This document shows positions 12,232-14,085 of a stretch of DNA of 17,868 bases, piece by piece. The stretch covers positions 1 through 17,868 of the IMG/VR virus record IMGVR_UViG_2617271049_000015; one strand, written 5' to 3'. The number at the start of each line of letters is the position of its first letter. Positions within the stretch are counted from its first letter, which is position 1. The position numbers and the translations under genes were made by a program. The stretch is from a virus. Lineage: Duplodnaviria; Heunggongvirae; Uroviricota; Caudoviricetes. A model generated the notes under the pieces. That model had not been told where the DNA came from, made no database searches, and saw only the letters and a program-made list of their open reading frames with translations.

Positions 12232-12359
12232 TTTGATATTTTATAAATTTACTTCGAATCTGGCACGTCAACTTTTGATTAAAGTAATATCAGTTTTCGG
12301 CGAAAAAAGGACCGTGTACATGAGACGATTTCATACAATAATAACAAAAATATGAATAT

Positions 12360-12393
12360 GCTCCCAATGCAATATATGTTTTGCATTGGGAGC
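12360..12393. terminator. Perfect 12-bp inverted repeat between convergent tfaX and the hydrolase gene
   Basis: GCTCCCAATGCA-10 nt loop-TGCATTGGGAGC; AT-rich flanks with a T5 run on the minus-strand side. Confidence 0.45.
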
Positions 12394-12414
12394 AAATAGC
12401 GGAATATTTTGAAA

Positions 12415-13899
12415 TTATTGTATTTCTGCTTCAGAATTTCCTGGGCAGTATATATTTTCTATTTTTTGTGGAGTGATCAGGTGATGTACAACTGCTTTAT
12501 CTACACATAAATTAACTCCGGTGAGAGCTAATGTATGCCCATCACCATTTATTGTTAGTAACGGGCTGGAAAATTTCTCTGCCATCTTACGGGCATTAAT
12601 CCAGGGCGTTGTTGGGTCGTATTTGTGTGCTACAAACAGTAAACCAGAGGGCAGAACAGTATTTTTCAGGCGAGTTTTGTTCAGGTCGCTATGTATTGGC
12701 CATAATTCACAAAAATCAGGTGAATCGGAACGTCCATTGTCAAAGTTAATAGCCGGGAAGGCATTCGCAAGAGCGTCTTTTCGGGATTTTCGCTCTTCTG
12801 GTGTTAATTGCTCATCCCCCTGATCTACACAGAGGATTACCCCCGAAGCATCGCTTGACTCTTCTGAGGCTATCGGAGCACTGAGCGCAGTTTCAATTTC
12901 ATTACTGACAATCCCCTGAGAGAACTGGCGTATGGCAGTTGCAAGGGTTGGCCATGATGAACGCCATAGCAGAAGGTCTGTTGTTAATGATATGAGTTCA
13001 TCTGAAGATATATTTTCTCTCTTACTGTCTAATAAAGGTTTGTGATGTAATTTTGATAATAGCTCATGGAACTGAGTTATTGCCTTATCTCTGTCTGAAG
13101 AAAGCGGGCAACTTTTTGTACGCGCACACCAGGATGCAAAGCGATCAAACGTTTCCTGATAACTCTGTGCCTGTTTGAGTTGCCATGTGAAGTTGTCCTC
13201 CAGGTCATCGATATCGACGACTCCATCAAGAACGATAGATCTTACGTTGTAGGGAAAACGTTCTGCATATAAGGCTGCAATTTGAGTTCCATACGAATAC
13301 GCCACGGCTGTCAGTTGTTTATCCCCCAAGGCTTGCCTAATACGATCAATATCGTATACAGCCTCGTTAGAGCCGATATGGCGAATGACTTCGGCTCCGG
13401 TATTATGGATACAGGCATTAATTTTATTTAATACTTGTTGCTTTTCGGTTATGTTTTCCTGAGTCTCTGTATCTGATTGCCGGCAGTTTATTGTCGGAGT
13501 GGACTGTCCGACGCCTCGAGGATCAAATCCAATAATATCCCATGACTCACGAAGATTTGTGACTGGCCAGTCAAAGTTAATATAAGGATTTATGCCTGGT
13601 AACCCGGGACCACCACTTATTATCAGGATACTTCCTTTATGCTTGCTTTTTGCCGGCAATTTTGTCAACGCTAGTTTGACTTGTGATTTTTTTTCATAAG
13701 AAGCATCTCCGCCTGTGTCTGTATATTTTAATGGAACAGACAAATAACCACATAGTAAGTCAGGAGACGGTTTTTCCTCACCAAACCAGTGGTTGAATTG
13801 ACTGGCCATACAGGATTGCCACTGTATCTGCTGGGCAGATACGGTTACTGGTAGAAGTAACGTTAAAACAACTTTGAAATGAGTAATTATTTTTCGCAT
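12415..13899 (-). CDS. Secreted alpha/beta-hydrolase, S33-like (prolyl/tripeptidyl aminopeptidase-type) serine peptidase, 494 aa
   Basis: Signal peptide MRKIITHFKVVLTLLLPVTVSAQQ; oxyanion-hole-like SGGPG; nucleophile elbow AYSYG; C-terminal GDGH histidine; AT-rich codon usage; not in the K-12 layout, where appY sits at this position as I recall. Confidence 0.8.
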   Translation of the reverse strand: MRKIITHFKVVLTLLLPVTVSAQQIQWQSCMASQFNHWFGEEKPSPDLLCGYLSVPLKYTDTGGDASYEKKSQVKLALTKLPAKSKHKGSILIISGGPGLPGINPYINFDWPVTNLRESWDIIGFDPRGVGQSTPTINCRQSDTETQENITEKQQVLNKINACIHNTGAEVIRHIGSNEAVYDIDRIRQALGDKQLTAVAYSYGTQIAALYAERFPYNVRSIVLDGVVDIDDLEDNFTWQLKQAQSYQETFDRFASWCARTKSCPLSSDRDKAITQFHELLSKLHHKPLLDSKRENISSDELISLTTDLLLWRSSWPTLATAIRQFSQGIVSNEIETALSAPIASEESSDASGVILCVDQGDEQLTPEERKSRKDALANAFPAINFDNGRSDSPDFCELWPIHSDLNKTRLKNTVLPSGLLFVAHKYDPTTPWINARKMAEKFSSPLLTINGDGHTLALTGVNLCVDKAVVHHLITPQKIENIYCPGNSEAEIQ

Positions 13900-14037
13900 T
13901 GTGTCTCTGAATATCGGAATAAAGATAAGATTTGAATATATTGAGGTCTTGTGTTGCGGTAAGAGATTACACGTTATGACATAGGTTAAATGCTTACAAA
14001 ATTAGTGGATATTGCCTACTTGTAACTGTAAACAAAT

Positions 14038-14066
14038 TCCCCGGGGTTATACAATACCACCGGGGA
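14038..14066 (-). terminator. Hairpin downstream of the ompT stop
   Basis: TCCCCGG-loop-CCGGGGA followed on the minus strand by a T-rich tract (AATTTGTTTAC). Confidence 0.4.
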
Positions 14067-14085
14067 GAAAATCTGGTTAACTTCG

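Follow-up and report, generated by a model that had tools for sequence, protein, structure and literature searches.

The DNA analysed here (the window; 17,868 nucleotides, positions 1 to 17,868 of the IMG/VR record IMGVR_UViG_2617271049_000015) carries a compact DLP12-like cryptic prophage of Escherichia coli, and between a tfaX-like tail-fibre-assembly remnant and the omptin gene ompT it contains an open reading frame (ORF) for an alpha/beta-hydrolase of 494 amino acids (aa). The range 12232..14085, from the end of the tfaX-like ORF to the ompT stop codon, comprises this ORF and its two intergenic flanks. The initial annotation had described the product as a secreted S33-like serine peptidase that stands in place of the K-12 gene appY, and had seen in the two neighbouring proteases an accessory proteolytic or virulence module. 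Our analysis places the predicted enzyme in the clade of Mycobacterium tuberculosis Hip1 (Rv2224c, CaeA), whose serine protease activity is proven and which hydrolyses p-nitrophenyl butyrate as well (PMC4022732), and shows that omptin and hydrolase genes form a conserved mobile cassette, whose carriers include the F plasmid and prophage Sp8 of O157:H7. The features at the locus are:

12415..13899, minus strand: coding sequence of the predicted exported alpha/beta-hydrolase, 494 aa, ATG start (ORF listing; Pfam, PDB, AlphaFold and Foldseek matches)
13834..13899, minus strand: predicted Sec signal peptide of the signal peptidase I type, MRKIITHFKVVLTLLLPVTVSA, codons 1-22, cleavage after VSA (by inspection of the hydrophobicity profile and the -3/-1 rule)
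13603..13617, minus strand: SGGPG, residues 95-99, putative oxyanion-hole loop; Gly97 aligns to Hip1 Gly110, and G96-G99 align to Hip1 G109-G112
13288..13302, minus strand: AYSYG, residues 200-204, putative nucleophile elbow; Ser202 aligns to Hip1 Ser228 and Tyr203 to Tyr229 (GYSYGT in Hip1)
12604..12621, minus strand: YDPTTP, residues 427-432, with the putative catalytic acid Asp428; Asp428 aligns to Hip1 Asp463 and Thr431 to Thr466 (HDPATP in Hip1)
12535..12546, minus strand: GDGH, residues 452-455, with the putative catalytic His455, which aligns to Hip1 His490 (GTQHT in Hip1)
14086..15039, minus strand: ompT, omptin outer-membrane protease, 317 aa (Pfam Omptin 4e-130; NCBIfam NF008222, 706 bits against a cutoff of 537)
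13900..14085, minus strand: ompT-hydrolase spacer, 186 nt, with a weak Shine-Dalgarno-like AGAGA upstream of the ATG
11926..12231, plus strand: tfaX-like tail-fibre-assembly remnant (Pfam Caudo_TAP 9.1e-18, C-terminal part only), the left border of the cargo region

Pfam finds both Abhydrolase_1 (PF00561; 7.9e-34, 117.8 bits against a cutoff of 25.8) and the TAP-like C-terminal domain (PF08386; 1.7e-14, 54.2 bits against a cutoff of 21) in the hydrolase, and its best sequence matches in PDB are chains of Hip1 (E 3.2e-51, residues 21-475). The AlphaFold model, built on a 23-sequence alignment, has a mean predicted local distance difference test (pLDDT) score of 87.2, and the six top Foldseek matches of this model are all Hip1 entries, with template modelling (TM) scores of 0.73-0.81 and E-values down to 4e-34. 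TnmK1 and TnmK2 come next, and prolyl aminopeptidases reach a TM score of only about 0.3. An assignment as prolyl aminopeptidase (S33.001, TIGR01249) was rejected, as the protein scores 35.9 bits against a cutoff of 259.75 and is matched only over residues 170-263.

Residue conservation was read from a 23-sequence alignment that reaches down to 28% identity and includes sequences from Mycobacterium, Nocardia, Pseudomonas and Serratia. Invariant in all 23 are G96, G97, P98, G99, S202, Y203, G204, T205, D428, T431 and H455. These residues include the counterparts of the catalytic machinery of Hip1, in which Ser228, Asp463 and His490 form the triad and the S228A mutant is inactive (PMC4022732), the backbone NH groups of Gly110 and Tyr229 form the oxyanion hole (PMC13041806), and Thr466 belongs to the active site, in the S1 pocket (PMC4022732, PMC13041806). 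The mature hydrolase has ten cysteines, in columns that are invariant or nearly so; nine of them align directly to cysteines of Hip1, which has 11 and five predicted disulfides (PMC4022732). Hip1 and the tripeptidyl-peptidases make up one of three clusters of MEROPS family S33 (PMC11878206). With the Pfam domains, the full-length match to Hip1, the GGPG loop and a triad Ser202/Asp428/His455 that aligns to Hip1 and is invariant in the 23 homologues, the claim of an S33-like serine peptidase is borne out at the level of fold and catalytic machinery. Taken together, the sequence comparisons make it very probable that the protein is an active exported serine hydrolase of the Hip1 clade. Whether it is a peptidase in vivo is an even bet; a preference for peptide or ester bonds is not readable from its sequence, and Hip1 cleaves both. 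RefSeq names the protein only “alpha/beta hydrolase”, and in PHROGs it belongs to a phage protein family without known function. The 2026 paper on markers of Shiga toxin-producing E. coli (STEC) discussed below contains neither Hip1 nor S33 nor a protease function.

The export signal consists of MRKIITHFKVVLTLLLPVTVSA, followed by QQ, and has two basic residues, a hydrophobic core at residues 8-20 (Kyte-Doolittle 2.0-2.5) and, at positions -3 to -1, V-S-A; no lipobox was seen in the leader on inspection. Residues 1-18 are of low confidence in the AlphaFold model, and a comparable hydrophobic leader stands at the start of all aligned homologues. Cleavage at the predicted site would leave a mature protein of 472 aa, 52.6 kDa and pI 5.5. 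The RefSeq record of phage 2G7b annotates the hydrolase (7091-8485) from an internal start, as a protein of 464 aa that lacks the signal peptide; the PHROG profile is shortened to this length too. From such gene models, which lack the leader, the export signal would escape automated localisation prediction. The position between tfaX remnant and ompT, the length of 494 aa, the leader and the SGGPG, AYSYG and GDGH motifs are all as the initial annotation had given them, and the gene is indeed AT-rich, with a G+C content of 42.2% overall and of 35% in the third positions of codons. It is not a chance ORF, given a ratio of nonsynonymous to synonymous substitutions (dN/dS) of 0.12-0.15 against diverged copies and some 2000 homologues at E <= 1e-20.

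The hydrolase gene follows ompT on the same strand, and this arrangement recurs in other mobile elements. Eleven Escherichia phage records carry the hydrolase at 99.4-100% identity, and several of these phages have been propagated on K-12 or E. coli C; phages 2G7b, ev243, PhiR26_1, PhiR30_1, Turner and others carry the omptin-hydrolase pair. The gene order of phage 2G7b (int, ompT, hydrolase, tail-fibre-assembly genes) corresponds to the accessory region by the attachment site, and the arrangement in PhiR26_1 is similar. In O157:H7 the pair lies beside minE and not at the DLP12 site; in strain Sakai its genes, ECs_1662 (hydrolase) and ECs_1663 (ompT), close the lambda-like prophage Sp8 on its right side. 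On IncF plasmids, where the hydrolase is 95% and the omptin 92% identical to the window, the pair adjoins iro genes, and haemolysin plasmids carry ompP together with a hydrolase homologue. The F plasmid (NC_002483) has ompP at 32322..33269 and a hydrolase homologue at 33374..34861, so that F+ and F' laboratory strains carry a copy of the hydrolase, though the K-12 chromosome is without it. The ompP-type plasmid copies that were scored, which are closely similar to F, are 77-79% (hydrolase) and 70% (omptin) identical to the window. Two more diverged versions of the pair were found on plasmid-like metagenomic contigs. Identities to the window pair, from tblastn for the chromosome/phage and ColV-type rows and from codon alignments for the O157, P0002-type and ompP/P0006-type rows, are:

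Chromosome (L001) and phage 2G7b: hydrolase 99.8-100%, omptin 99.4%
O157: hydrolase 99.4%, omptin 98.7%
ColV-type IncF plasmid: hydrolase 95%, omptin 92%
P0002-type contig: hydrolase 81%, omptin 79%
ompP and P0006 types: hydrolase 76-77%, omptin 70%

The pairwise identities of hydrolase and omptin rise and fall in step, and in all six diverged versions the two genes share a strand and keep one order, in which the hydrolase follows the omptin. The spacers measure 186, 186, 184, 188, 92 and 92 nt; the ompP versions have the 92-nt spacer and a better ribosome-binding site, AGGAG. Comparison of diverged versions gave a dN/dS of 0.12-0.15 (hydrolase) and 0.05-0.19 (omptin), at synonymous divergences (dS) of about 0.9-1.1 and above 1, respectively, which is near or beyond saturation. 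Both genes are under purifying selection. That two neighbouring proteases suggest a module, as the initial annotation had proposed, gains support from a pair kept in six diverged versions on phages, plasmids and chromosomes: omptin and hydrolase genes form a conserved mobile cassette, and this suggests that the pair may share a peptide-cutting job in the envelope.

Among 5426 complete E. coli genomes, the cassette and its alternatives were distributed as follows:

Hydrolase, any match: 1254 genomes
Hydrolase region, >= 80% covered: 1226 genomes
ompT: 3095 genomes
K-12 appY segment: 852 genomes
701-nt probe across the hydrolase-ompT junction, >= 80% covered: 1234 genomes

With 1234 genomes positive for the junction, against 1254 with any hydrolase match and 1226 at >= 80% coverage, practically every copy of the hydrolase is joined to ompT. 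The gene is accessory and not core: it is found in 1254 of the 5426 genomes, and its only functional label is “alpha/beta hydrolase”, so that it is no common conserved core gene of known function.

Two loci without the hydrolase help to place the window in an evolutionary order. The segments that separate them from it are:

12156..14035: segment without counterpart in K-12 MG1655, by the limits of sensitive blastn (megablast limits 12126..14081)
11953..13929: segment missing from the CFT073-type (B2) ompT locus, from an alignment with the junction in a TTGAA microhomology

In K-12 MG1655 the order is tfaX, appY (plus strand, opposite to the hydrolase) and ompT, with a 1.5-kb appY segment in place of the window segment. 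Homology to K-12 resumes at 14036, and of the DNA that follows ompT only about 50 nt are kept, the hairpin after its stop codon included. The CFT073 locus consists of ybcY followed by ompT, with the junction at positions 3846-3852 of the CFT073 locus sequence and at 11952/13930 of the window; it keeps 156 nt of the ompT-hydrolase spacer, and the class appears as matches of the junction probe with 60-61% coverage. By its alignment, the CFT073-type locus reads as a clean deletion of tfaX remnant and hydrolase from a window-like ancestor. At the protein level (tblastn), no remnant of the hydrolase was found in K-12 or CFT073. Since complete phages and diverged plasmid versions have the pair, the state with the hydrolase would most simply be the older one, and the K-12 and B2 states would be derived. 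The description of the hydrolase as standing in place of the K-12 gene appY thus holds for the position, which was confirmed in MG1655, while the direction of the replacement was probably the reverse.

Expression of the hydrolase may depend on its neighbour. Two hairpins bear on this question:

14038..14067, minus strand: GC-rich hairpin CCCCGG ... CCGGGG, then AAUUUGUUU, just after the ompT stop codon; fold energy -20.6 kcal/mol, z -2.5
12359..12394, minus strand: terminator-like hairpin with a 14-bp stem and a T-rich tail, from a terminator scan; 21 nt past the hydrolase stop codon

A consensus scan found no sigma-70-like promoter on the hydrolase strand of the spacer. The hairpin after ompT is retained in all versions of the module and in K-12; five distinct versions keep 8 pairs, with little covariation, and we regard it as a probable leaky ompT terminator or RNA-stability element. 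The lack of a detected spacer promoter, the short spacers, the conserved hairpin and the strong terminator-like hairpin after the hydrolase together suggest partial read-through from the omptin promoter. In O157:H7 Sakai, ECs1662 was reported to be down by log2 2.53 at the transition to stationary phase, and ompT (ECs1663), in the adjacent table, by log2 2.72, with both genes in QT cluster 1 (PMC2241611). As the ECs1662 locus tag is the hydrolase, which we checked against the Sakai annotation, the gene is transcribed in this strain and is regulated by growth phase, in a pattern that would fit co-regulation with ompT.

The surrounding prophage extends over about 15.4 kb (1-15382), from integrase to ompT, which is less than the length of K-12 DLP12. 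Its genes are, in order from the left, the integrase (1..1164), rusA, the Q antiterminator, an nmpC-type porin gene, lysis genes, ybcV, tfaD, ybcY and the tfaX remnant. Head and tail-shaft genes are missing, nohD being followed directly by tfaD, and the ompT-hydrolase end is also present on complete phages of 45-48 kb. Two genes that are pseudogenes in K-12 are intact in the window, namely the nmpC-type porin gene (4891-5988, minus strand, 365 aa; split in K-12) and the ybcY gene for an S-adenosylmethionine (SAM)-methyltransferase (11201-11869, minus strand, 222 aa; annotated as a pseudogene in K-12). The tfaX-like ORF is annotated by RefSeq as a partial pseudogene in an identical locus. It shares with tfaD a duplicated tail-fibre-assembly segment of about 121 nt at about 90% identity (tfaD 10981-11101, tfaX remnant 12030-12150), and these repeats could mediate rearrangement of the cargo region. 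No tRNA or attachment (att) sites were found in the window; the contig stops at a run of Ns before attR. This run of ten Ns (15383..15392) is a scaffold join, the DNA to its right is unrelated to the prophage, and the ORF 15315..16154 is an artefact because it reads through the Ns. To the right of the run (15393-16562) lie the end of an Rhs core with a DPxGL-type motif, a toxin-like DUF4329 C-terminal domain and a gene for an NTF2-fold immunity protein (16194..16562), which together look like the tip of a polymorphic toxin.

In the literature the gene has probably appeared under other names. An in-silico study of 2026 describes a 472-aa “hydrolase” that is predicted to be extracellular and is linked to OmpT by STRING (PMC12945212). 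It was found in 81.6% of STEC but only 15.8% of non-STEC genomes, with an 81%-identical variant at the same locus (PMC12945212), and the study mentions neither Hip1, S33 or a protease function nor a phage or plasmid context. This is very probably the gene of the window, because the predicted mature length is also 472 aa, a 472-aa member belongs to the same 90% cluster, and variants at 81-82% identity exist; the accession given in the study is WP_249926694.1. For one isolate, a study of omptins in uropathogenic E. coli (2019) notes, “186 bp downstream of ompT”, a gene that it calls ymcE (PMC6854850). Given the same spacing of 186 bp, this “ymcE” may be the hydrolase gene under a wrong label. 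The report of “z1931” in supernatants of enterohaemorrhagic E. coli was rejected as evidence for secretion, since Z1931 is by gene order most probably ompT itself. Searches for ompP with F plasmid and hydrolase, or for ompT with Hip1 or TAP-like terms, returned nothing relevant.

Together, our data suggest a model in which the hydrolase is exported by Sec, loses its 22-residue signal peptide and folds in the periplasm into an enzyme of about 52.6 kDa with five disulfides. Ser202, Asp428 and His455, with an oxyanion hole formed by the backbone of Gly97 and Tyr203, would cleave peptide bonds and, as in Hip1, ester bonds as well. Its gene is the downstream half of a mobile two-gene cassette in which the omptin comes first, on the same strand and 92-188 nt away, and read-through from the omptin promoter probably accounts for at least part of its expression. 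The cassette itself lies at the att-proximal end of lambdoid phages, where it would serve as lysogenic-conversion cargo, and is also carried by IncF plasmids. Its most likely role would be accessory envelope proteolysis, with the omptin cleaving cationic substrates (peptides and proteins) on the cell surface and the soluble hydrolase degrading peptides or proteins that reach the periplasm or the immediate surroundings. Within this model we infer the peptidase chemistry, the final location, the co-transcription and the cooperation with OmpT. Leaving the cooperation aside, we give the model as a whole a probability of roughly 0.55; that hydrolase and omptin actually work together is a more tentative proposal, towards which we are rather sceptical. 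Three contextual hints, each of them weak, favour peptide substrates. In Serratia and Pseudomonas, chromosomal homologues (45% identity; 45-53% with that of Budvicia included) lie beside genes for SBP_bac_5 / Opp-Dpp-type peptide ABC transporters, partners of other omptins are related to antimicrobial peptides, and the Budvicia homologue lies near genes for an EptA-type phosphoethanolamine transferase and a Fic protein.

Several observations weigh against this model or parts of it. The hairpin after ompT looks like a terminator, which would point to a separate promoter for the hydrolase, and since the microarray cluster is large, co-regulation with ompT is weak evidence. The chemistry of the fold family is mixed, as TnmK1 and TnmK2 are not proteases and Hip1 was first described as a carboxylesterase. 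A search with OmpT (tblastn) found no omptin near hydrolase homologues of other species in 80 loci, which are mostly from actinomycetes, nor do the homologues on Salmonella and Serratia plasmids (52% identical) have an omptin neighbour. Conversely, the hydrolase has no match on the omptin plasmids of Klebsiella, Yersinia, Erwinia and Cronobacter, only 2 Shigella plasmids have a hydrolase match, against 135 with an omptin, and K-12 and B2 strains have ompT without it. As OmpT works without the hydrolase in K-12 and B2 strains, and ColV-type and other omptin plasmids lack the gene, any cooperation with OmpT must be dispensable. The tight linkage could also reflect shared descent of a small mobile segment and not a shared function.

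The pairing was also considered as a general trait of either family, and was rejected for both. For the hydrolase family, no omptin was found at the 80 loci or beside the homologues (<= 55% identity) on plasmids of Salmonella and Serratia and on chromosomes of Serratia, Pseudomonas and Budvicia. Omptins elsewhere have other partners (hlyF/mig-14, efflux genes) or no hydrolase match. The ColV/arlC-type omptin of pAPEC-O78-ColV is followed on the same strand by an hlyF-like SDR gene and mig-14, and an omptin on an E. fergusonii plasmid by MacAB-type efflux genes, also on the same strand. The site downstream of omptin genes thus seems to gather cargo related to the envelope or to antimicrobial peptides. 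The arlB gene of PI-6 was rejected as a hydrolase candidate, as the locus has an SDR gene instead; the literature found on arlB dealt only with archaella.

Among other explanations, mere co-travel is somewhat unlikely, although it is the strongest of the alternatives. The two genes would have been captured once and be adjacent by descent, without functional interaction. Both have a high A+T content and belong to the cargo region of mobile elements, ompT occurs alone in K-12, in B2 and on ColV plasmids, and the hydrolase occurs alone on Salmonella and Serratia plasmids and on chromosomes. However, adjacency, order, strand and the short spacer have been kept although synonymous sites are saturated or nearly so, both genes are under purifying selection, and the surrounding DNA is entirely different in each case (phage, F plasmid, haemolysin plasmid, adhesin plasmid). 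As deletions of the hydrolase do occur (the CFT073 type), its retention elsewhere is not for lack of opportunity. We consider it unlikely that the enzyme is an exported esterase or lipase acting on envelope or host esters (lipids, acylated molecules or lactones), with an ompT adjacency that has no proteolytic meaning. Such a role would fit the hydrolysis of p-nitrophenyl butyrate by Hip1, which was first named carboxylesterase A, and the many chemistries that the alpha/beta-hydrolase fold supports, of which the next-best structural matches TnmK1 and TnmK2 are a reminder. The depositors of phage 2G7b labelled the hydrolase “putative lactone hydrolase”, which is an unexplained automatic annotation, and one IncF plasmid has the iro siderophore-esterase genes in the vicinity of the pair. 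Among characterised enzymes, however, its nearest relatives (Hip1 and the tripeptidyl-peptidases of Streptomyces) are peptidases, the checked lining of the Hip1 active site is conserved (GGPG loop, Tyr after Ser, Thr431 as the equivalent of Thr466), and more distant relatives adjoin genes for peptide uptake.

Defence genes often lie in the att-proximal accessory region of lambdoid prophages, which is where the hydrolase gene is found. PADLOC, whose catalogue includes candidate defence systems, matches the hydrolase at 1.2e-55 with model PDLC01094 (“C3a206, TAP-like protein”), so that a prophage- or plasmid-borne factor for anti-phage defence or superinfection exclusion in the envelope has to be considered. 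The match is only at the level of the family, though, and has about the strength of the Hip1 match; known defence effectors are not typically soluble, exported and rich in disulfides, and the hydrolase is constantly partnered with an omptin, while no PADLOC model matched ompT or the methyltransferase gene. An anti-phage role is the least likely of the three rivals and, in our view, highly improbable. The preferred reading remains accessory envelope proteolysis by a mobile cassette. A bolder version of it is doubtful: a mobile two-protease system, in which a surface endoprotease and then a soluble periplasmic or released S33 peptidase act sequentially on host antimicrobial peptides or on host and bacterial envelope proteins. 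As a cassette for fitness or virulence, such a system would be disseminated by lambdoid phages (including Sp8) and by plasmids of the F type.

Few bacterial proteases have been studied as much as OmpT, and both the F plasmid and DLP12 feature in textbooks. Yet no function has been assigned to the hydrolase, which comes with the omptin in about 40% of the complete genomes that have ompT, in most STEC and on F itself. New here are the family assignment, the omptin-hydrolase cassette with F and Sp8 among its carriers, and the interpretation of the K-12 and B2 loci as derived states. The placement in the Hip1 / tripeptidyl-peptidase clade provides reagents, namely substrates, an S202A control and the existing Hip1 inhibitors, and inheritance as a unit with an omptin leads to a hypothesis on resistance to antimicrobial peptides and on host interaction that can be tested. 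Caution is also called for when ompT phenotypes are compared across K-12, B2 and STEC strains, which differ by a second hydrolase, predicted to be exported, as well. A two-protease system, if true, would explain the strong enrichment in STEC and would be an E. coli functional counterpart of Hip1, the immune-modulating protease of M. tuberculosis. If the enzyme is an ordinary scavenging peptidase, the result would be a useful annotation and little more.

Of the known systems, Hip1 (PDB 5UGQ, 7SFM, 9MD7) is the closest, with a full-length alignment and about 27% identity in structural alignment. The two have in common an alpha/beta-hydrolase core with a helical lid, the Ser-Asp-His triad, the GGPG loop, the Tyr after the nucleophile and the Thr in DPxTP, as well as a pattern of about ten cysteines and an extracytoplasmic location, which for the hydrolase is a prediction. 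The hydrolase differs in its Gram-negative host, in a plain cleavable Sec leader that takes the place of a cell-envelope anchor, in the elbow (AYSYG, GYSYG in Hip1), and in a mobile gene, on phages and plasmids, that is paired with an omptin; no relationship of the type of Hip1 and GroEL2 is known for it. Tap, SlpD and SlpE of Streptomyces lividans (S33.002 and relatives) are in one S33 cluster with Hip1 (PMC11878206) and, like the hydrolase, have the TAP-like C-terminal domain. These tripeptidyl-peptidases are secreted or mycelium-associated; a tripeptidyl-peptidase or endopeptidase mode of the hydrolase is not predictable from sequence. Prolyl aminopeptidase (PDB 1QTR, 1AZW) has the same MEROPS family and fold, with local similarity at the nucleophile elbow, but is a cytoplasmic protein of about 310 aa with another lid and without the cysteines.

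With regard to gene arrangement, the arlC/ompTp, hlyF and mig-14 genes (PI-6/ColV) likewise consist of an omptin followed by same-strand, envelope-related accessory genes on IncF plasmids (PMC6854850), but the partners are an SDR-family protein and Mig-14 and not an S33 hydrolase, and the omptin is of another lineage, 73% identical to OmpT. Lambdoid morons such as lom and bor resemble the pair in their location in accessory DNA between tail-fibre genes and attachment site, in their atypical G+C content, in having their own terminator, in envelope-targeted products (predicted for the hydrolase) and in their occurrence on laboratory-propagated phages. The omptin-hydrolase pair differs from lom and bor in being a two-gene cassette that encodes two hydrolases and is also carried by plasmids.

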